Source: Candidatus Omnitrophota bacterium (lineage in GTDB: Bacteria; Omnitrophota; Gorgyraeia; Zapsychrales; Zapsychraceae). From it: a DNA stretch of 64,000 bases. The stretch covers positions 9,869 to 73,868 of the forward strand of contig JADFYE010000010.1 in assembly GCA_015233195.1 (NCBI GenBank), read 5' to 3'. Position numbers and translations under genes: made by a program. The first letter of the stretch is position 1; every line of letters begins with the position of its first letter. Positions 3,196-50,791 of the stretch are shown piece after piece. The notes under the pieces are model-generated. The model did no database searches, had not been told where the DNA came from, and saw nothing but the letters and a program-made list of their open reading frames with translations.

Positions 3196-3228
3196 TATAT
3201 GGGCACGAAGTATCGTGCCCCTACGCAT
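3196..3228. repeat. GGGCAC hairpin repeat, copy 1 (gggcacga-agta-tcgtgccc + ctacg)
   Basis: 8-bp perfect stem at 3201-3220. Near-identical copies at 18682-18714 and 48587-48618. Confidence 0.85.
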
Positions 3229-3249: not shown

Positions 3250-5136
3250 CTAAGCAATTTTAACGTTTTTTTTCAAGTTCTCAACGGATTCTTTTAATAA
3301 ACGACAATACAGATCAAACCCTATACTTGCGATATAACCATGCTGTTCCTGTCCTAAAAGATTACCTGCCCCACGCAATTGCATATCCTCAAACGCGATT
3401 TTAAAACCAGCACCCAGCTCGCAATATTTTTCAATTGCTTCAATCCTCGCTTCAGCTTCCTGACTCAGTGATCGATGTGGCGGAATCAGAAAATAAGCAT
3501 ACGCTTCTCTAGTAAACCGCCCGACCCTGCCGCGCAATTGATGCAAATCCGCTAAACCAAAATGATCAGCGCGGTTAATTATCAAAGTATTAGCATTAGG
3601 AATATCAATACCAGACTCAATGATTGTGGTCGAGATTAAAACATCAACCGAACCTTCCAGCACCTGAATCATAATATGCTCAAGTTCTTTAGCAGACATT
3701 TGACCATGCCCAATAGCTATTCTCGCTTGCGGAACTAAACGTTTAATAATCGCTCCAATATGACTAATATCTTCGACACGGTTATGTATAAAGAACACTT
3801 GACCATGCCGCTTCACTTCCCGCTCGATCGCCTCTTTTATCAGATCCTCGTCGAATTCTTTAACAAAAGTTTTTACCGGTAACCTTTGCTGCGGCGGCGT
3901 ACTGATTACTGACATATCCCTCGCCCCAACCAAAGACATATGCAAAGTGCGCGGTATAGGCGTCGCGCTCATTGTTAAAACATCTGCCAACAAACGAAAA
4001 TGTTTTAATTTTTCTTTTGCCTTAACCCCAAACCGCTGTTCCTCATCAATAATAATCAGCCCTAAATCTTTAAACGAAATATCTTTTGATAAAAGCCGAT
4101 GCGTTCCAATTACCAAATCCACTTTACCATCCGCGAGGTCAACCACAATTTTTTGTTGTTCAGCTTTTGTTTTAAACCGGCTTAACATTGCTACCTTAAC
4201 CGGAAAATTATCCATGCGTCTTGTAAAATTGTAATAATGCTGTTCTGCCAAAATCGTAGTCGGAACCAACACTGCCACTTGTTTATGGTCCATAACTGCT
4301 TTAAATACCGCGCGCATCGCCACTTCAGTTTTACCAAACCCTACGTCGCCGCACAATAAACGATCCATTGGATAAATGGATTCCATATCACGCTTAACAT
4401 CTTCAATCGCCTTGATTTGATCTAAAGTTTCTTCAAAAGGAAACCCCTTTTCAAATTCTTTTTGCCAATCAGTATCAACGCTAAATGCATGTCCACGTAA
4501 ACTCGCCCGTACTGCCTGAGTATGCAACAACTCTGCAGCCATACGCTGCAATCTTTTTTGAATTTGCTGTTTAACCCTTTTCCATTCTGGACTGCCTAAC
4601 TTATAAACTCGAGGAGGACGCTTAGTAAAACTTACATACTTTTGTATCAAGTGGATATCATGTTTAGGCACAAACAATTTATCCCCGCCCTGATACTCAA
4701 TAACAAAATGTTCTTTTACTTCTTTCTGAACCTCAATGGTTTGTAGCCCAATAAACTTACCAATACCATGATAATTATGGACTACATAATCACCCTGCTG
4801 TATATCAACAAAATTATTTAAAGGAATATCTTCAGAAAATACGACCTTCTTATCAGTCCGTGCATGCGGTAAGACCATTACTATCTTATGTTCCCAAATA
4901 GCTTTACCAGAACGGATATTAACACTCGCGATGCGGGAAATTTTTTCATCATCAAAATCAATGCGGATGGGACCGTCAAAATTCACAGGATATATTTCAA
5001 TGATCTCTCCCCTGTGGGCATACTCTCCCTCTTGCAAAGCGTGACGGACGTTTTGATATTTTAATGCGGATAAATTGTTCAAGACCACATCTAAAGCTAT
5101 GGTCTGACCAACAAATAACTCAAGCGACTGGAACAT
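3250..5136 (-). CDS. mfd: transcription-repair coupling factor, compact form (628 aa)
   Basis: CarD/RID-like 'GDYVVHNYHGIGKFIGL..DKLFVP'. Helicase motifs 'GDVGFGKTEVA', 'DEEQRFG', 'SATPIPRT' and 'QLRGRVGR'. TRG-like 'FEDMQLRGAGNLLGQEQHG'. Confidence 0.88.
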   Translation of the reverse strand: MFQSLELFVGQTIALDVVLNNLSALKYQNVRHALQEGEYAHRGEIIEIYPVNFDGPIRIDFDDEKISRIASVNIRSGKAIWEHKIVMVLPHARTDKKVVFSEDIPLNNFVDIQQGDYVVHNYHGIGKFIGLQTIEVQKEVKEHFVIEYQGGDKLFVPKHDIHLIQKYVSFTKRPPRVYKLGSPEWKRVKQQIQKRLQRMAAELLHTQAVRASLRGHAFSVDTDWQKEFEKGFPFEETLDQIKAIEDVKRDMESIYPMDRLLCGDVGFGKTEVAMRAVFKAVMDHKQVAVLVPTTILAEQHYYNFTRRMDNFPVKVAMLSRFKTKAEQQKIVVDLADGKVDLVIGTHRLLSKDISFKDLGLIIIDEEQRFGVKAKEKLKHFRLLADVLTMSATPIPRTLHMSLVGARDMSVISTPPQQRLPVKTFVKEFDEDLIKEAIEREVKRHGQVFFIHNRVEDISHIGAIIKRLVPQARIAIGHGQMSAKELEHIMIQVLEGSVDVLISTTIIESGIDIPNANTLIINRADHFGLADLHQLRGRVGRFTREAYAYFLIPPHRSLSQEAEARIEAIEKYCELGAGFKIAFEDMQLRGAGNLLGQEQHGYIASIGFDLYCRLLKESVENLKKNVKIA

Positions 5137-5198: not shown

Positions 5199-7412
5199 TT
5201 ATTTCTTCTTTTTTGCAGTATAATCTTCCCAAGCTATAACAATCGAAGATGCCACGAAAATGCTGGAATAAGTACCAAATATAAAACCTACCAATAAACA
5301 AAAAGCGAAAGAATTTAAAACTTCCCCGCCTTTAAAAAACAATGCCAAAACTACTAACGTAGTTGCAACTGATGTCAAAATCGTCCGGCTCAAGGTTTCA
5401 TTAACGCTGACATTAACTAACTGCGCTAAAGGCATTTTTTGTTTCTTAACCATGTTCTCCCGAATACGATCATAGACCACAATAGTATCATTGATCGAAT
5501 AACCTGCAATGGTCATAAGCGCGGTAACGACCAAAAGATCGATCTGGCGACCGCTCATCAACAACACCCCAAATGCCACGATAACGTCGTGGAACAAAGC
5601 AATAACACCGGCTGTAGCAAAATCAAAATGTTTAAATCTAAACCCGATGTAAATCAGAATGCCGACCATGGCAAGGACTATCGCCCAGACTGCAGCTTGA
5701 CGTAAAGCTTTACCAACTACTGGTCCAACTTTTTCAATACGCATAACTTCAAATTTATTATCACTGAAATCTTTTTTAAATATTCCTGACACTAAATTAA
5801 AAGTATCATCAGCAGTACGGATCATGACTGTTTCCGGATTCTTAGCAAATTGCTGAATTACCGCATCCTTAATATTAGCGTCTTTCAATGCTTTACGTAC
5901 CTGATCCGCATTCACTGCTTTTTCAAAACGATATTGCTGGATCTGTCCACCTGAAAAATCAATACCATAAGCAGCGTCACCTTTTTTGAATAACACGACC
6001 AGACTGGTTATAACCAATATGGCGGAAAAACAAATCATAATATAACGAAGCCCGACGAAATTAAAATTCGTATGCTTGAAAAAATTACGCATTTTCAAAG
6101 CTTTGATCCAACCGTTTTCCAAAGCCAAAGAGAATAAATCGCGGCTGACCAAAACTGAAGTGAACAAACTTGCAGCCAACCCGATCGACAAAGTAACTGC
6201 GAAACCTTTGATTGGTCCAGAACCGAACTGGAATAACATAAAAGCAGCAATAAAATTAGTAACGTGAGTATCAATGATGGTCGTCAAAGCGCGTTTAAAC
6301 CCCGCAGTAATCGCGGCGGGTAAAGGTCTGCCATTACTAATCTCCTCGCGAATACGTTCGTTAATAAGGATATTACCGTCAACTGCCATACCTAAAGTCA
6401 AAATAACACCAGCTATACCAGGTAAAGTTAAAGTTAATGGCGAGCCTGGCATTAATTTATTAACTAAACCCATAATCCCAAATAACATTACCAAATTTAT
6501 CAATAAAGCAATGTTAGCAATGATACCTGATTCCCAATAATAAAATAACATGAACAAAAATACTAAAACCCCGCCGATAACTGTAGCAGTGATCCCGTCA
6601 CGAATCGAATCTTTTCCAAGTAAAGGTCCGATAGTGCGTTCTTCTTCGATTTTCATAGGCGCTGGTAAAGCACCAGAACGAAGCGCTAAACTCAAAACTG
6701 ACGCTTCTTCAAAAGTAAAATTACCAGATATACTGGCAGTCCCGCCTAATATCGCTTCTTTAATATTAGGAGCTGAAAGAACTTCACCGTCCATAACAAT
6801 TGCTAATCTGCGGTTAACATTATTCTGAGTCAATATTCCGAAATTCTTTGCGCCTTCAGCATTAAATTTAAGCGAGATACTCGGCTGTCCAAAACTTTGT
6901 GAATTATAATCAACCCTGGCATCAGCTACAGTGTCGCCTTTTAAAGCTACAGCTTTATCTATCAAAACTGGAGGAGCTCCGCCTTCTTTTTTAACATACT
7001 TAATTTCATAACCTTCAGGGATGTTACCTTTTAATGCGTCACTTACTTTGGTAGGATCATCATTTACCAAATGAAATTCCAATTGCGCTACCCGTCCAAT
7101 AATTGATAAAGCTTTTTCACGGTCAGTTACGCCAGGCAACTGAACTAATATTTCATCTTCGCCCTGTCTTTGAATAACTGTTTCACCAACTCCCATACCA
7201 TCAATACGATTACGCAAAATTTCAATCGCCCGTAACACTGCGTCATTTTTTGCATTACCCTCTATCTTAGTAGTATCGACCTGCAAAACTAAATGCATAC
7301 CACCTTTAAGGTCTAAACCTAAGTTAATATGATCTTTTATCGGGAAAGTAAACAATAAAGATACAACAATTATGGCGCCTACCCATAAAAGCCGAACACG
7401 TAAATTCTTCAT
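5199..7412 (-). CDS. secDF: protein translocase subunit SecDF (fused)
   Basis: 737 aa. SecD-like periplasmic domain plus two 6-TM SecD/SecF modules ('GLDLKGGMHLVLQV', 'GIDFSGG', 'DTIVVYDRIREN'). Confidence 0.92.
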   Translation of the reverse strand: MKNLRVRLLWVGAIIVVSLLFTFPIKDHINLGLDLKGGMHLVLQVDTTKIEGNAKNDAVLRAIEILRNRIDGMGVGETVIQRQGEDEILVQLPGVTDREKALSIIGRVAQLEFHLVNDDPTKVSDALKGNIPEGYEIKYVKKEGGAPPVLIDKAVALKGDTVADARVDYNSQSFGQPSISLKFNAEGAKNFGILTQNNVNRRLAIVMDGEVLSAPNIKEAILGGTASISGNFTFEEASVLSLALRSGALPAPMKIEEERTIGPLLGKDSIRDGITATVIGGVLVFLFMLFYYWESGIIANIALLINLVMLFGIMGLVNKLMPGSPLTLTLPGIAGVILTLGMAVDGNILINERIREEISNGRPLPAAITAGFKRALTTIIDTHVTNFIAAFMLFQFGSGPIKGFAVTLSIGLAASLFTSVLVSRDLFSLALENGWIKALKMRNFFKHTNFNFVGLRYIMICFSAILVITSLVVLFKKGDAAYGIDFSGGQIQQYRFEKAVNADQVRKALKDANIKDAVIQQFAKNPETVMIRTADDTFNLVSGIFKKDFSDNKFEVMRIEKVGPVVGKALRQAAVWAIVLAMVGILIYIGFRFKHFDFATAGVIALFHDVIVAFGVLLMSGRQIDLLVVTALMTIAGYSINDTIVVYDRIRENMVKKQKMPLAQLVNVSVNETLSRTILTSVATTLVVLALFFKGGEVLNSFAFCLLVGFIFGTYSSIFVASSIVIAWEDYTAKKKK

Positions 7413-15510: not shown

Positions 15511-15938
15511 CCCTTCTACCCTTTGGGGAGAAGGTTAGGATGAGGGGATAATTTCTTCAATTTTATTTTCAATAACTTCGTAAACCCCATCCATGTTTAT
15601 CAGAACATCGTTATTTGCAAACCGCAAAATTTTTATGCCTTGAGATTCTAAATATTTACTTCGAGTTTTATCTTTACGCTCACCAATATCTTCATAATGC
15701 TGACCCCCATCTATTTCAATTGCTAATTTAATTGATGGAGCATAAAAATCGATTATGTAATTCCCGATTGAAAATTGTCTCCTAAATTTAATATTTTTAA
15801 TTTGTTGATTTCTAACATACAACCAAATTAATTTTTCAGCGTCTGTTTGCTCTTTACGAAGATCTCGACAATAATCAATATTCGGTCTTTTTGGCATTAC
15901 CCCTCACCCTAACCCTCTCCCCAGAGGCTGGAGAGGGG
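15511..15938 (-). mobile_element. DUF559 endonuclease gene bracketed by inverted ~38-nt hairpin repeats (cassette-like insertion in the his operon)
   Basis: Left arm 15511-15547 is the reverse complement of right arm 15900-15938 at most positions. The gene fills the interval almost exactly. The same repeat occurs solo elsewhere. Confidence 0.45.
15535..15897 (-). CDS. DUF559 (Vsr/restriction-endonuclease-fold) protein
   Basis: 'TDAEKLIW..VRN', 'FRRQFSIGNYIIDFY', 'LAIEIDGGQH' and 'GIKILRFANNDV' match the DUF559 pattern. Confidence 0.85.
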   Translation of the reverse strand: MPKRPNIDYCRDLRKEQTDAEKLIWLYVRNQQIKNIKFRRQFSIGNYIIDFYAPSIKLAIEIDGGQHYEDIGERKDKTRSKYLESQGIKILRFANNDVLINMDGVYEVIENKIEEIIPSS

Positions 15939-16567: not shown

Positions 16568-17179
16568 TTAATCAATTATACCTTTTGTCGATGGAACAGA
16601 ATCTGGTCTTGCTGGATTGATCCGGGTTGCTTCATGCAAAGCCAAACCCAAGGCTTTAAACGCAGCCTCTAAGTTGGTATGCAGATCTTCGCTAGTTCCC
16701 TCGATCTTTACGTTAACAGTAGCGCCGATATTATGCGCGAAAGATTCAAGGAAATGTTCAAGGTAAGCCATAGTATAGCCATCTTCATTTTTAATATTCA
16801 CTTTATCCATATTTTCAATGGTCAAAGTCAAATAACCCCGACCGCTAATATCAACCACTGCCCGTCCTAAAGTAGACTCCATCGGAGCATATGCAGAACC
16901 AAAACGTTTAATCCCTTGCATTTCACCCAAAGCTTTTTTAAACAATTTGCCTAACACTATACCAATATCTTCATTAGTATGATGGATATCAATTTCCAAA
17001 TCAGCTTTCTTCACTGCCAATTCCAAATCAAAACAAGCATGGAACGCGAACAGATCCAACATATGGTCGAGCAAACCAATATTAGTCTTGATCTTACTCT
17101 TGCCCCGCCCATCAATATTTATTGACGCGGTAATTTCAGTTTCTTTACTTTTTCGCTCCAGCTGCGCTTTTCGTTCCAT
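16568..17179 (-). CDS. hisB: imidazoleglycerol-phosphate dehydratase
   Basis: 'HMLD', 'HHTNEDIGI' and 'HNIGA/HFLESF' IGPD motifs. The track start 17227 is a GTG inside the repeat (translated 'PSPASGERARVRG'). ATG 17179 ('MERKAQLERK') is preferred. Confidence 0.92.
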   Translation of the reverse strand: MERKAQLERKSKETEITASINIDGRGKSKIKTNIGLLDHMLDLFAFHACFDLELAVKKADLEIDIHHTNEDIGIVLGKLFKKALGEMQGIKRFGSAYAPMESTLGRAVVDISGRGYLTLTIENMDKVNIKNEDGYTMAYLEHFLESFAHNIGATVNVKIEGTSEDLHTNLEAAFKALGLALHEATRINPARPDSVPSTKGIID

Positions 17180-17183
17180 ATTT

Positions 17184-17221
17184 CCCCTCACCCTTGCCCT
17201 CTCCCCAGAGGCTGGAGAGGG
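17184..17221. repeat. 38-nt CU/GA hairpin repeat (cccctcaccc..ccctctcc..ggagaggg)
   Basis: One of 7 copies: 15511-15547, 15900-15938, 17184-17221, 21835-21871, 21897-21933, 41684-41722 and 50543-50575. Confidence 0.9.
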
Positions 17222-17246
17222 AATCACTTTAATTTATTATTTAAAA

Positions 17247-17423
17247 ACAAATTTTTAAAAATTAAAAGGCGCAGGTATTTAAGCGGACGTTGATAATTCG
17301 AGCGGGCACGGTTTGGACGAGTTTTATCGTCCAAGAGCGAGAATTATCTTCGAGCGTAGTTTAGTCTCGCAGGGACTAGCAAGCGTTCCGCGAAATACCG
17401 AAGACTTTTATCTAAAAATTTGT
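17247..17423. repeat. ~170-nt branched-hairpin intergenic element, copy 1 (candidate structured RNA or MITE)
   Basis: Terminal inverted repeats acaaattttt/aaaaatttgt. Nested helices aaaag.c/g.ctttt, ggtattt/aaatacc, gcgga/tccgc and gataattc/gaattatc. Two tip hairpins. Confidence 0.85.
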
Positions 17424-17438
17424 TAATTATATCACTTT

Positions 17439-18662
17439 TTACTTAAATCTAACCTTGACCGATTCAGAATGTTTCTCCAATCCTTCCAAACTCGCAATCT
17501 GAATTATAGCATCTTTTACCTTTTCCAAAGCCTTTTTTGAATACGAAATAACATGACTCTTTTTCATAAAATGATCAGTGCCTAGACCAGAAAAATACTT
17601 TGCAGATCCTAAAGTCGGCAGAACATGACTGGGTCCTGCAGCATAATCCCCTAAAGCTGTTGGACTGTACGGTCCCAAAAATATCGCCCCAGCATTTATT
17701 ATACGTTTAGCAATAACATTTGGATTATTAGTCATAATTTCTAAATGTTCAGGCGCTATTTTATTAGCAATATCAGCAGCTTCCTCAATATTTTTCGCTA
17801 ATACACCATATCCAGCCGGCACACGATTACGCATTTGTTTCAATAATTGTTTTGAAGTTGAAATCAAAATTGCTAATCCACCCAAATGCTCTATCTGCCC
17901 TTCCATATCTGCAGCAATAAAATCCGGATTAGAATGACGGTTAGCAATGATCGCTAACTCCGACGGTCCAGCTAACATATCAATATCCACAAACCCAAAA
18001 ACCTGACGTTTCGCTTCAGTAACATACATATTACCCGGACCAACAATTTTATGCACCCTAGGTATAGTCTTAGTACCTAAAGCCAAAGCCGCGATCGCTT
18101 GCGCTCCTCCAACTTTATAAATTTCATTCACCTTTAATAAATTCGCAACAGCCAATACATAAGGATTAACATGACCATTTTTATTCGGTGGAGTCATGAT
18201 AACAATACGTTTAACACCTGCGACTTTAGCTGGGATTACTGTCATATATACCGTCGACACTAACGGAGCAGTGCCTGCTGGAATATAAATACCAACCGCG
18301 TCCAAAGGTAAAATTGTTTCTCTTAATATAACCCCTTCTTCAGCTTTAACAAAACATGGACTCTGTTTATGAGTCTTGTAGAACGTAGTCACGTTCTTAA
18401 TTATCATTTTTAAATTTTCAACAAAATCAGTCGTGATATTCTGGAACGCAGCGCTTATCTCGCTTTCAGGCACCCGCAAATCTTTGGCTGTCAGCTTAAC
18501 TCCGTCGAACTTACGAGTATATTTAATCACCGCGTCATCGCCCTGCAAACGCACATCTTCGATTATTTGACGGACTTTCTCGCCCAAGCTTCTTTTATGT
18601 ACTTGAACATCACGGTTATAAATATCTTGTAAACTTTTTCCGGTTTGAGTCAGAATTTTCAT
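17439..18662 (-). CDS. hisD: histidinol dehydrogenase
   Basis: 407 aa. 'GGAQAIAALA.GT', 'IVGPGN.YV..AK', 'AGPSE' and 'EH' motifs. Confidence 0.93.
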   Translation of the reverse strand: MKILTQTGKSLQDIYNRDVQVHKRSLGEKVRQIIEDVRLQGDDAVIKYTRKFDGVKLTAKDLRVPESEISAAFQNITTDFVENLKMIIKNVTTFYKTHKQSPCFVKAEEGVILRETILPLDAVGIYIPAGTAPLVSTVYMTVIPAKVAGVKRIVIMTPPNKNGHVNPYVLAVANLLKVNEIYKVGGAQAIAALALGTKTIPRVHKIVGPGNMYVTEAKRQVFGFVDIDMLAGPSELAIIANRHSNPDFIAADMEGQIEHLGGLAILISTSKQLLKQMRNRVPAGYGVLAKNIEEAADIANKIAPEHLEIMTNNPNVIAKRIINAGAIFLGPYSPTALGDYAAGPSHVLPTLGSAKYFSGLGTDHFMKKSHVISYSKKALEKVKDAIIQIASLEGLEKHSESVKVRFK

Positions 18663-18681: not shown

Positions 18682-18714
18682 TATTTGGGCACGAAGTATC
18701 GTGCCCCTACGAAT
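18682..18714. repeat. GGGCAC hairpin repeat, copy 2
   Basis: gggcacgaagtatcgtgccc at 18687-18706. The conserved 'cctacg' tail contains the alaS stop codon. Confidence 0.85.
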
Positions 18715-21376
18715 TTTTTCTATCGTCTATCTTCTTCTTTGTTATTTGATAAGCAGCGTCAACAGCTCTATCTAAATTTTTTGTATCCTTGCTTCCAGCC
18801 TGCGCCATTTGTGGTCTGCCGCCGCCTTTACCACTAAATAAATCAGCTGCGTCTTTAATAAGCTCATTCGCATTTAAGCCTTGTTTCACCAGATCATCTG
18901 AAACTGTTATCAAAATTGTAGCACTATCTACTGATCTGGCTCCTAAAATCGATACTGACGACTTAACTTTTTGTTTTATCAAATCTGATAACTTACGTAG
19001 AATATTTATATCAACGTCTTCTAAAACCTGCACAACAATCTTACTGTCTTTAACCTGCGTTCCTTTTTGAATAATCTGATCTATGCCAGATTTTACCGCC
19101 TCAAACTTAAATTGTTCTAACTGTTTTTCAAGATCCTTAACCCGAGCGGATTGAGCAATAGTTTTATCTGCCAATTCTGTTACCGGACATTTAAATAAAT
19201 CAGCCAATTTATCTAACGTGCTTTCCTGCTCTTCAACAAACATAACTGCGTCCATACCAGTCTTAGCTTCAATCCGACGGATGCCCTGTGCGATCGCACT
19301 CTCTCCCACAATTTTAAATAAACCAATTTCACCTGTTGAATCCAAATGTGTACCACCGCAAAATTCTTTTGAATAATCACCAATAGAAATAACTCTGACT
19401 ACATCGCCGTATTTTTCCGCAAAAAATGCTAAAGCACCAGTTGATTTAGCCTCTGTAATAGGCAAGAATTCTTTGGTAACGCAGTCACAAGCTAAAATAT
19501 ATTCATTCACTCTGCGTTCAACTTTAAGTAAGTCAGCTCTTGTAATAGCTTGGTGATGTGTAAAATCCAAACGTAAACGATCATCGGAAACATACGAACC
19601 TTGCTGTTGAACATGCGTGCCTAAAATTTCCCTCAAAGCAGCTTGCAAAAGATGAGTTGCAGTATGATTACGCATAACTGCCCAGCGTCGATCAATATCA
19701 ATTTCAGCTGCCACTAAATCACCAACCTCGAACTTTCCTTTTTCTACCACACCCAAATGCAAAAACACTTCTGAAATTTTCTGAGTATCAGTGATCTTTA
19801 AAATATTTTCGCCTTTACTAATATATCCAACATCGCCAATCTGCCCGCCGGATTCAGCATAAAAAGGTGATCGATCTAAAACTATTTTTGCCTGATCCCC
19901 TTGTTTAATTTCATGAACTGGTTTATTATCCTTAAATATTCTCAAAATCGAATCTGTGGTCTTAAAATGTTTATAACCAGTAAAATCCGTCTTAGGAATA
20001 TTTAGCTCTAAAGTATTATTAGTAAATACATCGCCAGTCATTTTGCTCGATGCCCTGGATTTTTCCTGCTGCTCTGCCATTAAATGATCAAACTCGTTTT
20101 TTACCGAAGAAAAAAATGAGCTGTCATTTCCAAACACTTTAATCAAAGGCTCTTTCATGGTCTCTAAAGTCAAACCATACGTGTCACGGAAATTAAACAA
20201 TATTACTCCTACTTCTTTGTGCGCCAAATTTACAGCTAATCCCTTTTCTTTAATTTTAACCAATTCTTTTTCAAATTCCGGTATGCGTTCTTTCCTTAAC
20301 TTTATATAACCAGCCTCAATATTTTTAACTAAATTCTCAATGTCTTTATGCTTAGCTTTTATCTCAGGATATTGATCTGCCATAGCTTCGATCACAGAAG
20401 GTATTAATTTATAAACACAAGGTTCATGCTTACCGCTGCGGATTGCTATATCAGAGATAGTGATAATCAATTTTTTCATGATATAACCACGTCCTTCATT
20501 AGAAGGAATTACCCCGTCTGAAATACCAAAAGTAACTGCCCGGATATGATCAGCCATAACCCGTTTTTCCCGCAAAGACAATTTCGCGTTTACATTCTGA
20601 TCAATTGATTTTAAAATCGGTTCAAACAAAGTAGTATCAAAATTATTATGTTTACCCTGCATTAAAGCAGTTAAACGTTCCAAGCCCATACCTGTATCAA
20701 TGTTCTTATTGGGTAATGGTTCCAAAACCCCTCCGTCTTTACGCTCAAACTGTGTAAATACCAAATTCCAAATTTCACAAAAACGTCCCATTTCATCGTC
20801 TGGGTCTTTGGGCGCGTTTTTAATTCCTTTTGTTTCCCATTCATAATCAAAAAATATTTCAGAACAAGGACCACACGGACCATTCGGACCATTAAGCCTA
20901 GCATTAGACGGCCAAAAATTACTTTTATCGCCTAAACGAAAAAGTTTTATATCTTTAATACCTACTTCTTTAAGCCAAATTTGTTCAGCTTCTTTGTCTT
21001 CTTTATTTACTGATACCCATAATTTTTCCGAAGGAATGCCTAATTCTTTGGTCAAGAATTCCCACGCCCAGAAAATCGCCTCGCGTTTAAAATAATCTCC
21101 AAAAGAAAAATTACCCAACATCTCGAAAAAAGTATGATGAAAGTCGGTCTTACCTACCTCGTCCAGATCATCAGTACGCAAACATTTTTGAGCAGTAGCT
21201 GCTCGTCTGAAATCAGTAATATCCCCTAGAAATTGGCGTTTGAATTGCTGCATACCTGCAGTAGTGAACAAAACAGTTGGGTCATCTTTAGGCACTAATG
21301 AATCGCTTGCAATAACCTTATGCCCTTTAGAAGCAAAAAAATTCAAATATTTTCTGCGGATTTCGCTAGTCGTCAT
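18707..21376 (-). CDS. alaS: alanine--tRNA ligase
   Basis: 889 aa. 'FTTAGM..FK', 'QKC.R..D...VG', editing-domain 'HTATHLL' and 'CGGTH'. C-terminal DHHA1-like region. Confidence 0.96.
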   Translation of the reverse strand: MTTSEIRRKYLNFFASKGHKVIASDSLVPKDDPTVLFTTAGMQQFKRQFLGDITDFRRAATAQKCLRTDDLDEVGKTDFHHTFFEMLGNFSFGDYFKREAIFWAWEFLTKELGIPSEKLWVSVNKEDKEAEQIWLKEVGIKDIKLFRLGDKSNFWPSNARLNGPNGPCGPCSEIFFDYEWETKGIKNAPKDPDDEMGRFCEIWNLVFTQFERKDGGVLEPLPNKNIDTGMGLERLTALMQGKHNNFDTTLFEPILKSIDQNVNAKLSLREKRVMADHIRAVTFGISDGVIPSNEGRGYIMKKLIITISDIAIRSGKHEPCVYKLIPSVIEAMADQYPEIKAKHKDIENLVKNIEAGYIKLRKERIPEFEKELVKIKEKGLAVNLAHKEVGVILFNFRDTYGLTLETMKEPLIKVFGNDSSFFSSVKNEFDHLMAEQQEKSRASSKMTGDVFTNNTLELNIPKTDFTGYKHFKTTDSILRIFKDNKPVHEIKQGDQAKIVLDRSPFYAESGGQIGDVGYISKGENILKITDTQKISEVFLHLGVVEKGKFEVGDLVAAEIDIDRRWAVMRNHTATHLLQAALREILGTHVQQQGSYVSDDRLRLDFTHHQAITRADLLKVERRVNEYILACDCVTKEFLPITEAKSTGALAFFAEKYGDVVRVISIGDYSKEFCGGTHLDSTGEIGLFKIVGESAIAQGIRRIEAKTGMDAVMFVEEQESTLDKLADLFKCPVTELADKTIAQSARVKDLEKQLEQFKFEAVKSGIDQIIQKGTQVKDSKIVVQVLEDVDINILRKLSDLIKQKVKSSVSILGARSVDSATILITVSDDLVKQGLNANELIKDAADLFSGKGGGRPQMAQAGSKDTKNLDRAVDAAYQITKKKIDDRKNS

Positions 21377-21834: not shown

Positions 21835-21933
21835 CTCTTCTCCCCTCCGGGGAGAAGATTAAGATGAGGGGTTTTAATAATTTTTATTTTTTAATTCCCC
21901 TCACCCTGCCCTCTCCCCATAGGTTGGAGAGGG
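21835..21933. repeat. inverted pair of the 38-nt hairpin repeat with a 25-nt AT-only spacer (gene-less counterpart of the DUF559 cassette arms)
   Basis: 21835-21871 (ctcttctcccctccggggagaagattaagatgagggg) and 21897-21933 (cccctcaccctgccctctccccataggttggagaggg) have the same relative orientation as the arms at 15511 and 15900. Confidence 0.85.
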
Positions 21934-38569: not shown

Positions 38570-39194
38570 TGTGTTTTTCCATTAACTCAACTGCTGAGCG
38601 ATCCATCTCATTAATAAACTGCGTTATCCTGTACTCACAATAATTATAAGCAATAAAAGCCAAAATACCGACCAACATGCCAGCTACTGTAGTTAAAATC
38701 GCGGACCACACTCCAAAAGCAAGATCTCCAGTAGTGAATGGCTGTAAAGCTTTAGTCTTTACTTCAATCGTACGAAAAATTACTGCCATACCAGTAGCTG
38801 TTCCTAATAATCCGAGCAATGGACTTATATACGTTATGCTAGAAAGAAAAATAAGATTGATTTTAAACTCCGGAATCAGCAAATCGCCCGCGTTTTTCAT
38901 GCTTTCTTTTATTTCAATTCTCGACGCGCTGAACTTAATTAATCCGGCTTTAATAATCTTAGCTGAAGGAGAACTACTGCCTTCACATATCGCGTAAGCT
39001 TCCTTAAGTTTATTGAGACTAATCAAATCAAATACCCGGTCTTTTAATAACTGCACGTCGGCTCTTATTGAATTAAAATACATCAGTCTTTCAATAAAAA
39101 TCGTCAAAGTTATCACCGAACATAATATGATCGGGATCAAAATCGGTCCGCCGGAAATTATCAATTGAAAAAAATTCATAGCACTATTTTCCAT
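38562..39194 (-). CDS. MotA/TolQ/ExbB-family proton channel
   Basis: 3 TM segments. 'ISPLLGLLGTATGM' and 'AILTTVAGMLVGI' signatures. Confidence 0.85.
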   Translation of the reverse strand: MENSAMNFFQLIISGGPILIPIILCSVITLTIFIERLMYFNSIRADVQLLKDRVFDLISLNKLKEAYAICEGSSSPSAKIIKAGLIKFSASRIEIKESMKNAGDLLIPEFKINLIFLSSITYISPLLGLLGTATGMAVIFRTIEVKTKALQPFTTGDLAFGVWSAILTTVAGMLVGILAFIAYNYCEYRITQFINEMDRSAVELMEKHNV

Positions 39195-41676
39195 TCGTTG
39201 TAATTACTTTATTATTAATCCAATCCAATCGCTCTTGCGCGAATTTTTTCTCCTCTACATTATAACTAAGCACTTTCTGATAAATCTGTTTTGCTTTAAT
39301 CCACTCATCCTGGTCTTCAAATATTCTCGCAACTCTAAGGTACGCCTTAACTGCCCATAAAGTCTGATCAATATAAAGATATGGAATCTTCAAATATTCG
39401 TCGAGAGCCTTATCCGTGTTATTCATCAACTCATAATCGTCTGCCAGACTAAACCTGATCTCAGCGTCAGGCGTGTGGCTCTGTCCTTTTACTGATTTCA
39501 AAGCATTTTCATAATATTGTGCTGCCTTTTGCTGATCATTCTGGCTCTTATATATTTCCGCGATTTTAAATAACGCATCTTTTGCAAAACTTGGGACTTT
39601 ATCCAGCATAGTCTTATACGTAGCAATCGCTGCATCAGGATCCATTTTTTGGGATAGAATTTCAGCTATCGCGCTCTTAGCTTTAACAAATATTTCCGGA
39701 GAAACTGTCTCAGAAATATTTTTAAACGACTCAATCGCTGCCTTATAGTCATTATTAGCTTTATATGCCTGACCTAAAGAATAATATACTTCGACCAGCC
39801 TCTTATTACCGGGGAAACTTTTAATGAATTCATTATAATGACTGATCGCGTAATTATAATCTCCGGCTTCCAAATAATGGTCGCCCAGCCAAATTAAAGC
39901 TTCTTGTCCAGCGTCGGAATCATGATATTTTGTTGCAACATTCCTAAATCTTTTCAAAGCTTCATTAATATTTCCGTTTTTATATAAACACTTTGCGATA
40001 TGCAATTCTGAATTTTTTACAATATTAGAATCACTCGGATACTCCTTTATTATTTTCTGAAAGACTGCTGCAGCTTCCGTGTATTTAGCTAAATTAAAAT
40101 TTGATAATCCTAATATATAATTCGCTTCTGAACGAAACTCGCTGCTATCCGTAGATTCTTTAAGAAAAGCACTCGCCTGCTCCATAGCGGTCTGCCATTG
40201 TTCCTGTTTAAAATATGCGACTGCAAGATAATATTTAGCGTCTTTTAAATATTTACTTTTTGGAAAGTTGGCTTGTAAAGTCTGTAAAGATAAAGTAGCA
40301 GCTTCGATCTTATTTTGTTTTAATAGGGTTACTGCCTGACGATATTGAACATAATCCGTATATGGACCAGCCGGAAATTCACCTAATATCTTGTCATAAA
40401 CTTCTACTGCTTGGTCCAACTGTCCGGCTTCCTGATACGCGTCTCCAATCTGGGTCATAGCGCTGATACGAATCGTATTATTATCAGTCTTACTTTGAAT
40501 GGTCTCAAAAGTATGAATTGAAAGATCCAGCGCCCCAGCTTTCATGTAACTCCACCCTAACGCGAAATAAGCTTTCTCCACAATATCAGGATAATCAGCG
40601 GACGCTTCATATTTATTTATTATCGCCCGGTAATCTTTTATTGCTGCATCATATTTCTGTTCTTGATAATAAGTGTTGCCTCTGCCTAATAATGCTTCGG
40701 GTACTCTCGGGCTATCTTGATATTTATTGACTATCTCAGAATAAGCGGACAAAGCCTTATCCACATTATTAGTCTCAGAATACAAAGATGCCAATCCCAA
40801 ATAAACATCATCTGCAGGTATACTCTTACTCTGCGCAAAACTTAAAGCATCGTTAAAATTTTTTTCTGAAAGATCATATTTCCCCAACTTTAAATAACAC
40901 CAACCCAAGCTTACCTTAGACGCAAAAATAGTCTTATTATCATACGATAAGCTCGCGGATTTTGCATAATACCCTACCGCATCCAACGGCTGGTTAAGAT
41001 AATAAAATGATTCTCCAATATAAAAATATGCCTCAGGATGTTTGACTGAATCCGGATAAGTATTTATATATTTTATGAAATGTTCCGTAGTTTTTTCATA
41101 ATTTTTTTGGGTATATAATATCTCACCTATTTTAAAAGCAGCGTCTTCAGCTAACTGATTGTCTGGAAATTTTTTTAAAATTTTTTCAAATATATCCTGA
41201 GCCTTCGTATAATCATTCTGAACAAAATATGTCCAGCCTAGAGAATAATAAGCCTGCGGCGCGTAAATCGAATCCGGATACGCGTCAATAACTTGTTTAT
41301 ACATTTCTTCAGCCTGTTTATAGTCCGAACCTTTTAAATACGTCTCACCCAGCCAGAATAAAGTAGCATCTTTAAATTGGGAGTATTGACTGGTTTCTTT
41401 AAAATAATTGAATGCCTTTAAATATTCACTTTTGAAAAAATAACATTGTCCTAATAAAAGTTTTGACTCAACTGACTTCGTGGTCTGAGGATAGTCCCGC
41501 ATTAATTGTTCGATATACCGGATGGATATATCATAGAACCCGTCGTCAAAAGCCTTTTGCGCTACTAAAAATAATTCTTCATCGCCTTCGGCAAAGGCGT
41601 CACGCGCGGTAAAACTAACTGCGGTTAAAACGACAAAAATAAAAACCAATATTATTCTTAAAAACTTCTTATTCAT
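39184..41676 (-). CDS. large secreted TPR protein (YbgF/BamD-type repeats)
   Basis: Signal peptide, then repeated '..YP(D/K)S....EA.Y.LG..Y' units. The track start 41691 is the GTG inside the repeat. ATG 41676 ('MNKKFLRI') is preferred. Confidence 0.75.
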   Translation of the reverse strand: MNKKFLRIILVFIFVVLTAVSFTARDAFAEGDEELFLVAQKAFDDGFYDISIRYIEQLMRDYPQTTKSVESKLLLGQCYFFKSEYLKAFNYFKETSQYSQFKDATLFWLGETYLKGSDYKQAEEMYKQVIDAYPDSIYAPQAYYSLGWTYFVQNDYTKAQDIFEKILKKFPDNQLAEDAAFKIGEILYTQKNYEKTTEHFIKYINTYPDSVKHPEAYFYIGESFYYLNQPLDAVGYYAKSASLSYDNKTIFASKVSLGWCYLKLGKYDLSEKNFNDALSFAQSKSIPADDVYLGLASLYSETNNVDKALSAYSEIVNKYQDSPRVPEALLGRGNTYYQEQKYDAAIKDYRAIINKYEASADYPDIVEKAYFALGWSYMKAGALDLSIHTFETIQSKTDNNTIRISAMTQIGDAYQEAGQLDQAVEVYDKILGEFPAGPYTDYVQYRQAVTLLKQNKIEAATLSLQTLQANFPKSKYLKDAKYYLAVAYFKQEQWQTAMEQASAFLKESTDSSEFRSEANYILGLSNFNLAKYTEAAAVFQKIIKEYPSDSNIVKNSELHIAKCLYKNGNINEALKRFRNVATKYHDSDAGQEALIWLGDHYLEAGDYNYAISHYNEFIKSFPGNKRLVEVYYSLGQAYKANNDYKAAIESFKNISETVSPEIFVKAKSAIAEILSQKMDPDAAIATYKTMLDKVPSFAKDALFKIAEIYKSQNDQQKAAQYYENALKSVKGQSHTPDAEIRFSLADDYELMNNTDKALDEYLKIPYLYIDQTLWAVKAYLRVARIFEDQDEWIKAKQIYQKVLSYNVEEKKFAQERLDWINNKVITTNGK

Positions 41677-41683
41677 ATAACAA

Positions 41684-41722
41684 CCCCTCACCCTAACCCT
41701 CTCCCCATAGGCTGGAGAGGGG
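41684..41722. repeat. 38-nt CU/GA hairpin repeat
   Basis: cccctcaccctaaccctctccccataggctggagagggg. On the minus strand it ends GAGGGG, 7 nt before the TPR gene ATG. Confidence 0.9.
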
Positions 41723-41773: not shown

Positions 41774-41948
41774 GCAAATTTTTTATATTAAAAGACGCAG
41801 GTATTTCAGCGGACGTTGATAATTCGAGCAGGCACGGTTCGTACATGCTTCACCGTACGAGAGCGAGAATTATCGTCGAGCGCAGTTAGACTAGCCGGGG
41901 CTAACCAGCGTTCCGCAAAATACCTAAGTCTTTTAACCAAAAATTTGC
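41774..41948. repeat. ~170-nt branched-hairpin intergenic element, copy 2
   Basis: TIR gcaaattttt/aaaaatttgc. P1 aaaagac/gtctttt. Tip hairpins tcgtac/gtacga and gttag/ctaac. Confidence 0.85.
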
Positions 41949-41954
41949 TAATCC

Positions 41955-44750
41955 CTATTTCAAAATTTTCCCCAAAAACTGTCCCGTATACGACTTTGCA
42001 CATTTTACTATTTCTTCAGGCGTGCCGCAAGCTATCACCTCTCCGCCTTTATCCCCGCCTTCAGGTCCAAGATCAATTATATGATCCGCGCTTTTTACCA
42101 CATCTAAATTATGCTCAATTATTAATATAGTATTGCCTCGATCAACTAACCGCTGCAAGACGCTCAATAATTTTTCAACATCCGCAAAATGCAAGCCTGT
42201 AGTCGGCTCGTCTAAAATATAAAAAGTCTGTCCAGTAGACTGTTTGCACAATTCACTTGCCAATTTAACCCGCTGCGCTTCACCGCCTGACAATGTAGTC
42301 GCGCTTTGACCTAATTTTATATATCCTAATCCTACATCATTTAAAGTCTCTAATACTTTACGAATTTTAGGCACATTTTCAAATACGTTCAAAGCTTCTA
42401 CTACCGAAGTGTTAAGAATATCATTAATATTCTTTCCCTTAAATTGTACTTCCAACGTCTGATCATTAAACCTGCGTCCGCCGCAAATTTCACATTGCAC
42501 ATAAACATCCGGTAAAAAATGCATTTCAATTTTCTTGATACCGTCGCCATTACACGCTTCACACCTACCGCCTTTGACATTAAAACTAAACCGCCCAGGT
42601 TTATAACCACGCATCTTTGAATCTGGCAGCATAGTAAATACATTACGGATATGGTCAAACATTCCGGTATAAGTCGCGGGATTAGATCGCGGCGTCCGAC
42701 CTATAGGAGATTGATCTACCACAATAAATTTATCAATCAGCTCCATGCCGGTTATTTTTTTTACTTTTCCGGGCTTTTCTTTAGAACTATAAAATTTCTG
42801 GGCTAAAGACTTATGAATAATTTCTTCGACTAATGTTGATTTTCCAGAACCGGAAACTCCGGTGATACAAGTAAAAGTTCCTAATGGTATCGCAATATCA
42901 ATATTTTTTAAGTTGTGCGCAGCAGCACCAAATATTTTTAATTGTTTTTTAAAATCAATATTACGTCTTATTTTAGGCACTGGGATAGTTAATTTACCGT
43001 TAAGATACTGACCAGTTAAAGATTTTTCAGACTTTAACAAAGCCGGCACGTCACCTTCAAATATTATTTCTCCGCCAAAAGCTCCAGCTCCCGGACCAAG
43101 ATCTATTACATGATCAGCCCTGCGTATTGTATCTTCGTCGTGCTCAACCACAATCAAGCTGTTACCCATATCCCTTAAAGCGTGCAAAGTTGAAAGCAGC
43201 CGGTCATTATCCCGTTGATGTAAGCCAATACTGGGTTCATCTAAAATATAAATAACCCCGACCAGCCCAGAACCTACTTGGGTTGCTAGACGGATACGTT
43301 CAGCTTCACCGCCTGACAATGTGCCGCTCTTCCTATCCAAAGTTAAATAATCTAAACCGACGTTTATACAAAAATCTAACCGTCTTTCAATCTCTTTTAA
43401 AATCGCTGCGCTGATTATCTTCTGATCAGCAGTTAATTTTAACTCGCGAAAAAATCGTTTAGCTTCTTTAATCGAAAAAGCGGATACTTCCGCTATATTT
43501 TTATCATTAATCTTAACTGCCAGAGATTCTTTTTTAAGACGAGCGCCATTACACTCCGGGCATGGTTTCAAAGACATATAATTACTTATCTCATCTTTCA
43601 ACCAATCACTATCCGTATCATTAAACATCCGCTCTAAATATCTAACTGCCCCTTCATACTTCTTTCCCCATATCTCGTCCATAGATCCATACAACAAAAT
43701 TTTCTTAAAAGAAGCTGAGAGTTTGTTGAATGGCGTATAAGGATCAACATCATATAGACCAGCCAACTCCCGCATCATCGCCCGATAATACATCAAATAA
43801 TTTCTGCGACCACGTTTAGAAGGGGCTATCGCATTAATCCAAGGCTTTGCCTCATCCGGTATTAAAATATCCGGATCTATTTCCATTTTAGTTCCCAGTC
43901 CATTACACGACGGACAAGCGCCATACGGAGAATTAAATGAAAAAGTTCTGGGCTCAATTTCAATAATACTTATACCGCAGTCAACACACGCAAAATGCTC
44001 GCTAAAAATCCTATCAATGGTTTTATTCTCTTCAGTAATTGAAACAATAACCAAGCCCTTGCCAAACTCTAAAGCCGTTTCAATCGAATCAGTCAAACGC
44101 TTTTTAGTATCCGGTTTAATCGTCAATCTATCGACCACAACTTCAACATTATGGATTTTATACTTATCCATTTTAATTTTATCTTCAGTGGTATAGATTT
44201 GACCATCCACCCGTAAACGCGAAAATCCCGCTTTAGTAACATCCACATTGATTTTACGATACTCCCCTTTGCGTCCTCTGATCAAAGGCGCCATAATAAT
44301 AATCTTAGTGCCTTCCCTATAATTAAATAACTGATCAACTATTTCCTGAGCATGCTGCTTCTCGATCTTTTTACCGCAATTCGGACAATAAGCAATTCCT
44401 ATGCGGGCAAACAACAGCCGCAAATAATCATTTATCTCCGTCTGAGTCGCGACTGTAGAGCGGGGATTCTTACTCGTAGTTTTTTGTTCAATCGATATTG
44501 TTGGAGATAGTCCGTCAATGGACTCAACGTTGGGTTTCTGTAATTGTTCCAGAAATTGCCGGGCATACGCAGACAAACTCTCAACATACCTACGCTGCCC
44601 TTCAGCATAGATAGTATCAAAAGCCAAAGAAGATTTACCCGAACCGCTCAACCCCGTGACTACTACAAATTTATTCCTCGGGATCTTAATGTCGAGATCT
44701 TTAAGATTATGCTCCTTGGCACCTTTAATAATTATAAAATCATTATCCAT
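41955..44750 (-). CDS. uvrA: excinuclease ABC subunit A
   Basis: 931 aa. 'GAKEHNLK', two ABC modules ('[10 protein letters not shown]', '[10 protein letters not shown]', 'LSGGEAQR') and zinc-finger CxxC pairs. Confidence 0.97.
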
Positions 44751-48586: not shown

Positions 48587-48618
48587 TATTTGGGCACAAA
48601 TTATTGTGCCCCTACGAA
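48587..48618. repeat. GGGCAC hairpin repeat, copy 3
   Basis: gggcacaa-atta-ttgtgccc at 48592-48611. It carries a compensated G-C to A-T change relative to copies 1 and 2. Confidence 0.85.
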
Positions 48619-49813: not shown

Positions 49814-50536
49814 CTATTCTAATCCCAACACTTGTTTCATTGTAAACAGCCCGTTTTTCTTATCCATGACAAATTTAGCTGCAGCCAGACCGCCTTTCGC
49901 GAACATGCCGCGGTTTTTCGCGTTATGGATCAGCGTCAATGTATCTTCCGGAGTCTCAAACGTGATCTTATGATATCCGACGACTTCGCCTTCACGAATT
50001 GATTCAACTGGCTTGACTTTTAAATTAGAAAATTTCTCCGCGATTTGAAGCATGGTCTTAGCCGTCCCTGACGGCGCGTCTTTTTTATGGATATGATGCG
50101 TTTCTGTAATCTTGATGTCATCAATTCCGACTAGCATTTTCGATGCCAACTCAATCATCTTGAATAAAACATTAACGCCGATTGACATGTTCGAAGAAAA
50201 TACGATCGGGATTTTTTTAGACGCTGATTCGATTTTTTTTACCTGCTCCTCATTTAATCCTGTTGTTCCAATGACCATGCGCACCCCGTATTTCAAACAT
50301 ACTTCTAAATTCTGCATCGTAGCCTCAGGAGATGTGAATTCGATCAGTACGTCGCAACCCTTCAACGCATTGTTATCCGCCGAAGGCATAACACCGCAGA
50401 CACTTTCTTTGATCTTGGGATGCGTCGCAATTTCAAAAAGCGTTTTGATATGGAACCTTGGATCTTTTTTTGCTGAATCACAAATCGCCTGACCCACCCG
50501 ACCGTGACACCCGCTAATTGCTAATTTAATGCTCAT
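49814..50536 (-). CDS. dapB: 4-hydroxy-tetrahydrodipicolinate reductase
   Basis: 'KLAISGCHGRVG', 'VIGTTG' and 'E.HH..K.DAPSGTA'. The track start 50566 lies in the repeat. ATG 50536 is preferred. Confidence 0.93.
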   Translation of the reverse strand: MSIKLAISGCHGRVGQAICDSAKKDPRFHIKTLFEIATHPKIKESVCGVMPSADNNALKGCDVLIEFTSPEATMQNLEVCLKYGVRMVIGTTGLNEEQVKKIESASKKIPIVFSSNMSIGVNVLFKMIELASKMLVGIDDIKITETHHIHKKDAPSGTAKTMLQIAEKFSNLKVKPVESIREGEVVGYHKITFETPEDTLTLIHNAKNRGMFAKGGLAAAKFVMDKKNGLFTMKQVLGLE

Positions 50537-50542
50537 AAAATT

Positions 50543-50575
50543 CCCCTCACCTAACCTCTCCCACAAAGGGAGAGG
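50543..50575. repeat. 38-nt CU/GA hairpin repeat (shorter variant)
   Basis: cccctcacctaacctctcccacaaagggagagg. Its minus-strand GAGGGG lies 6 nt before the dapB ATG. Confidence 0.85.
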
Positions 50576-50622: not shown

Positions 50623-50791
50623 ACAAATTTTTTAAATAAAAGTCGAAGGTATTTAAGCGGACATTGGTAATTCGAGCGGGCACGGTTCGTACGCCAAAAG
50701 CGTACGAGAGCGAGAATTACCGCGAGCGTAGTTTAACACGCTGGGTTAAACAAGCGTTCCGCGAAATACCGAAGACTTTTAAAAAAATTTG
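50623..50791. repeat. ~170-nt branched-hairpin intergenic element, copy 3
   Basis: P1 aaaagtc/gactttt. P4 ggtaattc/gaattacc, a double compensatory change relative to copies 1 and 2. Tip hairpins tcgtacgc/gcgtacga and gtttaac/gttaaac. Confidence 0.85.

Follow-up and report, generated by a model that had tools for sequence, protein, structure and literature searches.

What is the branched hairpin of ~170 nt that stands three times, in one orientation, in the operon spacers of an Omnitrophota genome? The element lies in a stretch of 64,000 nucleotides (hereafter the window; positions 9,869 to 73,868 of contig JADFYE010000010.1, assembly GCA_015233195.1, Candidatus Omnitrophota bacterium), in the gaps between hisD and hisB, uvrA and a TPR gene, and dapA and dapB. 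The initial annotation had proposed selection on a fold, and had named a MITE (miniature inverted-repeat transposable element) of the ERIC or Correia type, a processed intercistronic RNA, and a recognition structure for a protein or transposase as candidates. The results below suggest that the element is probably mobile but non-autonomous, resembling in its behaviour the Rickettsia palindromic element (RPE), and that its fold would be the substrate of an activity supplied in trans.

The three copies (Table 1) correspond to families D1, D3, and D5 in the repeat-finder output, which are the top families of the window. Averaged over alignment columns, they are 85% identical along the full element and 90% along the core, which extends from helix P2 to its partner strand P2'. 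The core of the element is ~115 nt long, the whole amounts to ~145–180 nt including the basal stem, and there is no coding capacity. The two joint motifs described below occur exactly three times in the 64 kb, whereas none of 100 shuffles contained three or more matches, and an unfiltered covariance-model run on the 64 kb returned these three copies and zero degenerate ones. The repeat finder and the covariance model thus bear out three same-orientation copies of ~170 nt with a branched fold. The elements are real at the places first reported, but the ends of copies 2 and 3 were slightly off and have been reset in Table 1. The gene context also stands: hisD and dapA were identified directly, and hisB (IGPD), dapB, uvrA, and the TPR gene by synteny with a relative.

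The fold was evaluated for copy 1 against shuffled sequences. As RNA, the plus strand reached −60.9 kcal/mol (z = −5.9) and the minus strand −50.4 kcal/mol (z = −5.3); as DNA, the corresponding values were −35.7 (z = −5.1) and −29.0 (z = −3.9). RNAalifold, applied to the three copies, recovered every helix that the initial annotation had drawn, namely the outer inverted repeat, P1, P2 (GGTATTT/AAATACC), P3, P4, and the tip hairpins A and B. The reported compensatory changes are correct for the outer repeat (A-T versus G-C), P1 (A-T versus T-A), P4 (A-T versus G-C), and both hairpins. Most of the helix details are also right, except that the middle of P1 in copy 1 is a G/A mismatch, and that hairpin B, described with a 7-nt loop, is shifted in copy 2, where the loop is 11 nt. 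Copy 3 carries one A/C in P3b, which is the one disrupting difference over the 126-nt core of the three copies, compared with at least eight compensated pairs.

One genome per species was then scanned with a pattern of the unpaired joints only (GAGCNGGCACGGTT, 14–30 nt, GAGAGCGAG). At least 112 stretches matched, one of which (L037) is a chance match in a coding region. Among the matches listed, the record titles place 41 stretches in Omnitrophota, 25 in Patescibacteria/candidate phyla radiation (CPR) lineages, 14 in Aminicenantes, 12 under Planctomycet* names, 7 in Eubacteriales, 3 in Makaraimicrobium, 2 in Margulisiibacteriota, and 1 in Gammaproteobacteria, with 7 unclassified. Genomes carry multiple copies, for example at least seven in one Omnitrophota metagenome-assembled genome (MAG), and the viral contigs scanned gave no match to the element. 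The presence of homologues in several phyla indicates that the window copies are not local gene-conversion products. Rfam 15 returned no hit at the gathering score over the whole window and nothing credible at E ≤ 10 for copy 1, and in 17 further loci gave tRNA and tmRNA hits only, none on the element; this agrees with the earlier failure to recognize a named RNA family. A literature search by taxon, keyword, and joint sequence found no description of the element.

The cores of the three window copies, with a structure checked by hand, were used to build a covariance model (R1). It yielded 108 copies in the window and 99 loci, and the remaining loci added a further 15; 15 of all these copies do not match the joint pattern. 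Because a MAFFT alignment of 104 copies contained too many gaps for structural analysis, the covariance-model alignment replaced it. In the 108-copy alignment, whose pairing figures are somewhat inflated because the rows were aligned by fitting to R1, 90.0% of the pair cells hold standard pairs (59.3% in shuffles, at most 57% with slid partners), double changes occur at 41 of the 42 pairs, and the covariation score is 0.659 (0.166 in shuffles, at most 0.10 with slid partners). RNAalifold found the same architecture independently on the same rows, with the forward strand stabler in 93 of 98 copies. The covariation first noticed in three copies is thus much stronger, not weaker, in 108. The alignment contains 294 GU/UG cells against 43 AC/CA cells, or 191 against 43 when a near-invariant U.G pair is excluded. 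This excess of G-U over A-C indicates that the folding strand is the one that reads GAGCGGGCACGGUUC, which is the plus strand of the window. The genes on either side of all three window copies run antisense to this strand.

From the outside in, the consensus consists of a basal stem, P2, P3, and a three-way junction. The basal stem is variable in sequence, adds a median of ~15 pairs, and often contains a GCGAG/CGAGC tandem-GA module; its two strands are inverted repeats that differ in sequence between genomes. The first junction arm comprises P4, a tandem G.A/A.G, a 2-bp GC helix, an 8-nt bulge GGGCAnGG facing one unpaired A, and hairpin A, whose first pairs are U.G and then U-A. The second arm, a GCGU-type stem, leads to hairpin B, whose loop nCGCnGG is closed by a C-G pair. 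In terms of the joints listed in Table 1, the GA of the 5' joint forms the tandem sheared G.A with the 3' joint and is followed by the 2-bp GC helix, the 8-nt bulge GGGCACGG, and hairpin A, opened by the conserved U.G pair; the central GC of the 3' joint GAGCGA pairs with the GC of the 5' joint, and its final GA supplies the tandem G.A pairs. A K-turn reading of the core was ruled out, as the 2-bp GC helix covaries and the bulge lies on the wrong side.

The stems are free to vary provided that pairing is kept; the unpaired joints are almost invariant between phyla. Loop B is conserved at 90% or more over 100+ copies although it lies outside the search pattern. In the 15 pattern-independent copies, one bulge position alone varies freely, and the 2-bp helix covaries (GAAC/GTGA, GAAT/ATGA). 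Bacterial small palindromic repeats, such as repetitive extragenic palindromic (REP) sequences, ERIC, Correia, and RPE, are normally genus-limited, with selection on their ends or none. The distinctive feature of the present element is the cross-phylum invariance of its internal unpaired bases together with RNA-like covariation in an element without a gene. The near-identical unpaired bases in Omnitrophota, CPR, and Aminicenantes, along with the covarying helices, suggest a conserved molecular partner and repeated horizontal spread.

The element behaves as an insertion. The window hisD product is 100% identical to a protein annotated as Candidatus Omnitrophica/Omnitrophota, and its nearest relatives share 89% and 80% identity with it. 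GCA_015233115.1 is the closest relative (87–89% protein identity to the window genome); in it, dapA and dapB abut or overlap, with no gap and no element copy, the uvrA|TPR gap is just 103 nt and holds no copy, and the hisD|hisB gap (L113) contains a different insert in place of the element. In the 80% relative (L114), the hisD|hisB gap is 40 nt and empty. R1 found no copy in 37 kb of the relatives, compared with three in the 64 kb of the window. Thus, all three window sites are without the element in the 87–89% relative. At the dapA/dapB site, the insertion has remodelled the operon: the overlap is split, and a repeat with a putative ribosome-binding site (D2, described below) lies in the new spacer.

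Copies are also found inside genes. For L085, a 799-aa CPR membrane protein remains in frame through three sense copies, and four homologues lack all three inserts. A homologue with 57% identity has inserts at the same three alignment positions, one of which is a recognizable element copy, belonging to the same subfamily as an L085 copy at another site. These related copies at different loop sites in two lineages indicate that one CPR membrane-protein gene family has been hit repeatedly. For L076, an antisense copy lies within RecG, and the wedge, DEAD, Helicase_C, and C-terminal domains are intact on both sides. A sense copy lies within the Wzy_C ligase domain in L003, and an antisense copy within a PMT_2 protein in L032. 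For L002, an antisense stop-free copy joins MurC and MurB as a single 840-aa open reading frame (ORF), which could be a true fusion protein created by insertion, or could reflect loss of the murC stop codon.

All six clearly intragenic copies are in frame and stop-free, for which the chance expectation is ~(1/3)^6; these properties would be needed only if the copies are translated. The conserved nucleotides are read as SGHGS, RAGTVP, GTVPAR, or NRARS, depending on the gene, and Pfam found no family match on the inserts. As identical nucleotides are read in differing frames in different genes, selection does not act on the peptide, which is in accordance with the view of the initial annotation that the fold, and not a coding frame, is selected.

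The orientation of the copies is biased. On crude ORF calls, the folding strand has both of its flanking genes in antisense at 25 loci and in sense at 11, and at 53 of 73 loci it lies on the strand that is locally richer in C (Wilcoxon p = 0.002). The bias has two readings: selection against sense insertions, in which a folding strand in the mRNA is harmful, or coupling to replication. In sedentary integrons, the folding attC strand lies on the leading-strand template, as in this bias. The same orientation data support the earlier judgement that a riboswitch is unlikely; a riboswitch or cis-regulatory leader was rejected, as the neighbours are unrelated and the fold is mostly antisense. 5S rRNA, SRP RNA, tRNA-like RNA, retron RNA, bridge RNA, and omega RNA were also rejected, for the element has no Rfam match and no associated gene, and its loops are conserved, not programmable.

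The known system that seems closest in behaviour is the RPE. RPEs are gene-less hairpin repeats of ~100–150 nt, present in many copies and found in-frame inside unrelated housekeeping genes (PMC10969869). The present element is likewise both intergenic and in-frame intragenic and adds a peptide loop, with palindromic repeats in RecG, the Wzy_C ligase, the PMT_2 protein, the CPR membrane protein (three copies), and the MurC-MurB link; no mobilizing enzyme is known for either. In contrast, RPE families are confined to Rickettsia and each has a conserved peptide, whereas the present element occurs in several phyla, with differing frames and no conserved peptide, so that the likeness is one of behaviour. 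Its conservation resides instead in a branched, strand-specific fold with invariant unpaired bases.

MITEs such as Correia (CREE) and ERIC resemble the element in being small, non-autonomous, and dispersed, in having a terminal inverted repeat stem, in lying often in operon spacers, and in being able to affect transcripts. MITEs have terminal inverted repeats matching a parent insertion sequence (IS), as well as target-site duplications (PMC10969869). For the present element, neither a parent IS nor a target duplication of at least 8 nt was found, within a test that leaves duplications of 2–4 nt possible. In addition, MITEs conserve their ends and their families are limited to a genus or family, whereas in the present element it is the ends that vary and the interior joints that stay invariant. 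The longest direct repeat in the flanks averages 7.0 nt, compared with 6.8 nt for reversed and 6.6 nt for shuffled flanks (110 copies; 2–4 nt lies within the blind range of the test). Direct repeats of 7–12 nt, seen by eye around the window copies, were discarded as target duplications, being no longer than expected by chance over the 110 copies. The lack of enrichment at 8 nt or more and of a parent IS indicates that the element is not a classical Correia/ERIC-type MITE; of the MITE-like identity first proposed, the mobile element is retained and the classical type is not.

In logic, the element appears closest to the folded single-strand substrates, that is, REPIN/RAYT, the ends of IS200/IS605 elements, and attC sites. 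In the REP/REPIN (RAYT) and IS200/IS605 (PATE) systems, folded single strands are recognized, terminal inverted repeats and target duplications are not required, and pairing is kept by compensatory change. REPs themselves are simple hairpins of 20–40 nt with a GTAG-type 5' motif, which flank a RAYT gene and occur as inverted doublets. The head-to-head close pairs of the present element (six of six) resemble these doublets; its structure, in contrast, is a ~115-nt three-way junction, and its strand bias is opposite to that of IS608. The attC sites are similar in being strand-specific folded substrates of single-stranded DNA (ssDNA) with conserved structure, unpaired bases as recognition points, and a variable, sometimes branched tip. 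They differ in lying in cassette arrays next to an integrase and in conserving R'/R'' boxes (GTTRRRY); no array, integrase, or boxes accompany the present element.

In the mechanism that we propose, the folded single strand, either ssDNA or RNA, would be the form that is recognized and then copied or moved. The trans-acting enzyme would be encoded elsewhere; candidates are a nuclease or recombinase specific for ssDNA, and an enzyme of the host. The recognition structure for a protein or transposase named at the outset fits this scheme, with a presumed partner. After insertion, the element would be a passenger that persists where it is least harmful, namely in operon spacers, with the folding strand mostly antisense, and in protein surface loops, if it is 3n nucleotides long and stop-free, where it would then be translated. 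The covariance model provides a handle for a search for the partner by phyletic profiling. It could also serve to annotate, in uncultivated phyla, spurious "hypothetical proteins" by the hundred and unusual loop insertions in proteins, and to test how insertions remodel operons.

Whether the active form is ssDNA or RNA was approached through the terminal loops and transcription signals. Among 90 terminal loops of hairpin A, 38 are triloops, 17 are C(GNA)G (11 of them C(GAA)G), two are GNRA, and none is UNCG. Mini-hairpins of the d(GCGAAGC) type are unusually stable in DNA and not in RNA, and GNRA and UNCG tetraloops dominate natural structured RNAs. Promoter searches near the three window copies gave one weak match per region, equal to shuffles, at scattered positions and strands; family-wide, there is no positioned −10 box, no terminator, and no T-run, and a mild AT-rich patch occurs at −17 to −1, upstream of the basal stem. 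The G.U (G.T) and tandem G.A pairs are possible in both RNA and DNA and are not decisive. Together, the triloop bias and the absent transcription signals incline us, by a little over even chances, to ssDNA as the active form.

Several observations weigh against a mobile element moved in trans. No transposase, recombinase, or reverse transcriptase was found near ~125 copies, so that the partner enzyme is purely something that we infer. More specifically, none of the ~125 neighbourhoods contains a Y1/HUH transposase gene, a view that does not take in a single-copy partner elsewhere in the genome. Flanking direct repeats of 8 nt or more are not enriched, no conserved flanking motif was found, and no flank signature ties the element to known transposition chemistry. 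The folding strand lies on the expected leading-strand template, which is opposite to IS200/IS605-type elements; the active strand of IS608-type elements lies on the lagging-strand template, which predicts the opposite bias. The orientation bias could simply reflect selection against sense insertions. The near invariance of the 5' and 3' joints arises partly by construction, since they are part of the search pattern, and the unbiased evidence for conservation consists of the 15 pattern-independent copies and loop B only. Several taxon labels were assigned to MAGs automatically, and subfamilies in common suggest that some bins labelled "Planctomycetales" and "Eubacteriales" may really be Omnitrophota and Aminicenantes. 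Finally, conservation this extreme in unpaired bases, from one phylum to another, typifies functional RNAs more than MITEs.

A possible though more tentative reading is that the element represents a new class of mobile three-way-junction structure, in which the joints would be catalytic, in the manner of a ribozyme or DNAzyme, or a docking site for a widely conserved single-strand recombinase or nuclease. The small self-cleaving ribozymes (hammerhead, twister, twister-sister, hatchet, and pistol) are similarly short and multi-copy, have no gene association, and combine variable stems with an invariant junction or loop. They differ in that the present element has no Rfam match and that its intragenic copies would be translated. 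If this reading is true, a gene-less sequence of ~115 nt spreads horizontally across at least four phyla and colonizes even essential genes, and a fold that proved catalytic, or defined a new pathway of single-strand transposition, would have general interest and might serve as a tool.

We consider it unlikely that the copies are paralogous genes of an independently transcribed, trans-acting structured noncoding RNA, whose joints would bind a protein or ligand. Points in favour of such a family are the strand-specific fold with G-U pairs, the strong covariation, the near-invariant unpaired nucleotides over phyla, and a slight excess of A and T over the 17 nt upstream of the basal stem. However, there is no positioned −10 box or terminator, the abutting head-to-head pairs leave no space for a promoter, and GNRA and UNCG loops are almost absent. 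Moreover, copies lie within ORFs in both orientations, copy number is highly variable, and all three sites are without the element in the close relative.

An RNA-based mobile element appears somewhat more doubtful. In this alternative, the plus-strand RNA would be active, either as a small self-cleaving or self-ligating ribozyme or as an RNA recognized by a reverse transcriptase, and would be copied back in the manner of a retrozyme or SINE. Its variable stems with a conserved junction, bulge, and loop are reminiscent of small ribozymes, its copies are dispersed and have no gene association, and the antisense bias may come from selection that removes cleaving or structured RNAs from operon mRNAs. 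Conversely, no Rfam ribozyme family matches, no reverse transcriptase lies nearby, there is no promoter, sense copies are tolerated three times in one gene, and the triloop bias favours DNA.

Still less probable, in our judgement, is a domesticated cis-acting element of operon mRNAs, serving as a site of processing or stability, as a terminator or an insulator, or as a decoupler of translation. Every window copy lies in an operon spacer and, together with D2, whose GGTGAGGGG is the putative ribosome-binding site, separates genes that overlap in the relative. Correia and ERIC elements create RNase III or RNase E sites (PMC10969869). However, the conserved fold is on the strand outside the operon mRNA, in the window and at most loci, which equally disfavours the processed intercistronic RNA among the first candidates. 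In addition, the flanking genes are unrelated, intragenic copies exist, and close relatives with empty sites manage without the element.

An intron-like or translationally bypassed intervening sequence deserves very little credence: although copies interrupt conserved proteins and CPR bacteria are intron-rich, most copies are intergenic, those inside RecG and the PMT_2 protein are antisense, and all six intragenic copies keep the frame and are stop-free, a combination of antisense and in-frame copies that effectively excludes introns, translational bypass, and riboswitches alike.

Table 1. Positions of the element copies, their conserved parts and neighbours, and other features discussed in the text (unprefixed positions refer to the window, those with an L number to the respective locus).
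Feature	Position	Strand	Remarks
Element copy 1, full hairpin	17247-17423	+	core (P2 to P2') 17274-17399; R1 score 145 bits
Copy 1 neighbour, hisD	17439-18662	-	
Copy 1 neighbour, hisB ORF	16568-17227	-	ATG read at ~17171
5' joint of core	17300-17312	+	GAGCGGGCACGGU; nearly invariant
3' joint	17335-17340	+	GAGCGA; first G closes hairpin A with U of 5' joint
Hairpin B terminal loop	17367-17373	+	UCGCAGG; family consensus C-nCGCnGG-G
Element copy 2	41774-41948	+	core 41800-41924; R1 score 140 bits
Copy 2 neighbour, uvrA	41955-44750	-	
Copy 2 neighbour, TPR gene	39184-41691	-	
Element copy 3	50624-50791	+	core 50648-50770; R1 score 136 bits
Copy 3 neighbour, dapA	50847-51743	-	
Copy 3 neighbour, dapB	49814-50566	-	
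D2 repeat	15914-15936, 17198-17220, 21910-21932, 41698-41720, 50555-50575	all same	CCTCTCC(3-9 nt)GGAGAGG in longer unit CCCCTCACCCTAACCCTCTCCCC..GGAGAGGG
D4 repeat	3201-3220, 18687-18706, 48592-48611		GGGCAC(8 nt)GTGCCC then CTACG; T-rich run before
Head-to-head pairs	L093 3042-3338; L020 2515-2810; L034 2727-3068; L091 6605-6910; L109 3090-3426; L104 3371-3687		
MurC-MurB ORF	L002 106-2628		antisense element copy
ORF between copies	L078 631-1524	-	~260-297 aa; Margulisiibacteriota MAG
Element copies flanking L078 ORF	L078 520-650 (-), 1448-1580 (+)		head-to-head
Palindrome CCTGCCTGCCGGCAGGCAGG	L071 ~2290-2320; L086 ~6215-6245; L006 ~5330-5360; L029 ~4600-4625		in stems of element copies
Insert in hisD|hisB gap	L113 5230-5650		uncalled ORF
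PF05635/bAvd gene	L114 4620-5054		called gene

Close pairs of the element (<100 nt apart) are arranged head-to-head, with the 5' ends facing, in six of six cases, some of them at homologous loci. The five pairs inspected each consist of one canonical and one variant copy (e.g., GAAC/GTGA, or GGGCAAGG), and in L020 the basal stems of the paired copies are ~8 nt apart. The arrangement is reminiscent of doublets of REPs, or of a minimal transposon with its two ends, and could represent a composite two-armed unit or a target preference.

No recurrent neighbour protein family was found: BLAST clusters reach at most 7 of 111 loci and are housekeeping genes, and phmmer clustering of ORFs within 600 nt of copies returned only translations of the element itself. 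The cargo between paired copies consists of thiL, gap, and a VIT-family gene, all housekeeping, plus one ORF without a Pfam hit in L078. Two head-to-head copies flank this ORF, whose E-x-K-like motif (..IFCEVKSP..) and D-rich strand (LLIIVDDF) are reminiscent of PD-(D/E)xK nucleases; it is the sole non-housekeeping cargo seen between copies.

Two other hairpin repeats occur in the window. Three of the five D2 copies (17198, 41698, and 50555) adjoin element copies, 25–60 nt to the 5' side of the element. The D2 copies at 17198 and 50555, when read on the gene (minus) strand, are followed by GGTGAGGGG and ATG, which we read as the probable real start of the next gene (hisB and dapB, respectively), and those at 15914 and 41698 stand at the 5' ends of the ORFs 15535-15897 and 39184-41691. 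From its sequence, D2 looks like a portable ribosome-binding-site module. D2 and the element form a block of ~260–315 nt, the whole of which is missing from the relative in which dapA and dapB overlap, and D2 was not found beside the element copies in other phyla. The second repeat, D4, looks REP-like or terminator-like; its copy at 18687 is placed shortly beyond the 5' end of the hisD ORF and stops where the ORF 18707-21376 has its 3' end.

Other insertions occupy the same kinds of sites. In L113, another insert occupies the spacer that holds copy 1 in the window. It is an uncalled ORF between inverted repeats rich in GTATGT and is read, from its sequence and the L114 gene, as a putative protein of the PF05635 (23S-rRNA-IVS) type. 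In L114, a called gene with PF05635/bAvd Pfam hits lies between GATase- and His_biosynth-family genes. Genes of this four-helix-bundle type have thus apparently been inserted in the his operon of both relatives, at different places. The palindrome CCTGCCTGCCGGCAGGCAGG is nested in the stems of some Omnitrophota and CPR copies of the element, which suggests that there are several hairpin-insertion families, able to land within one another.

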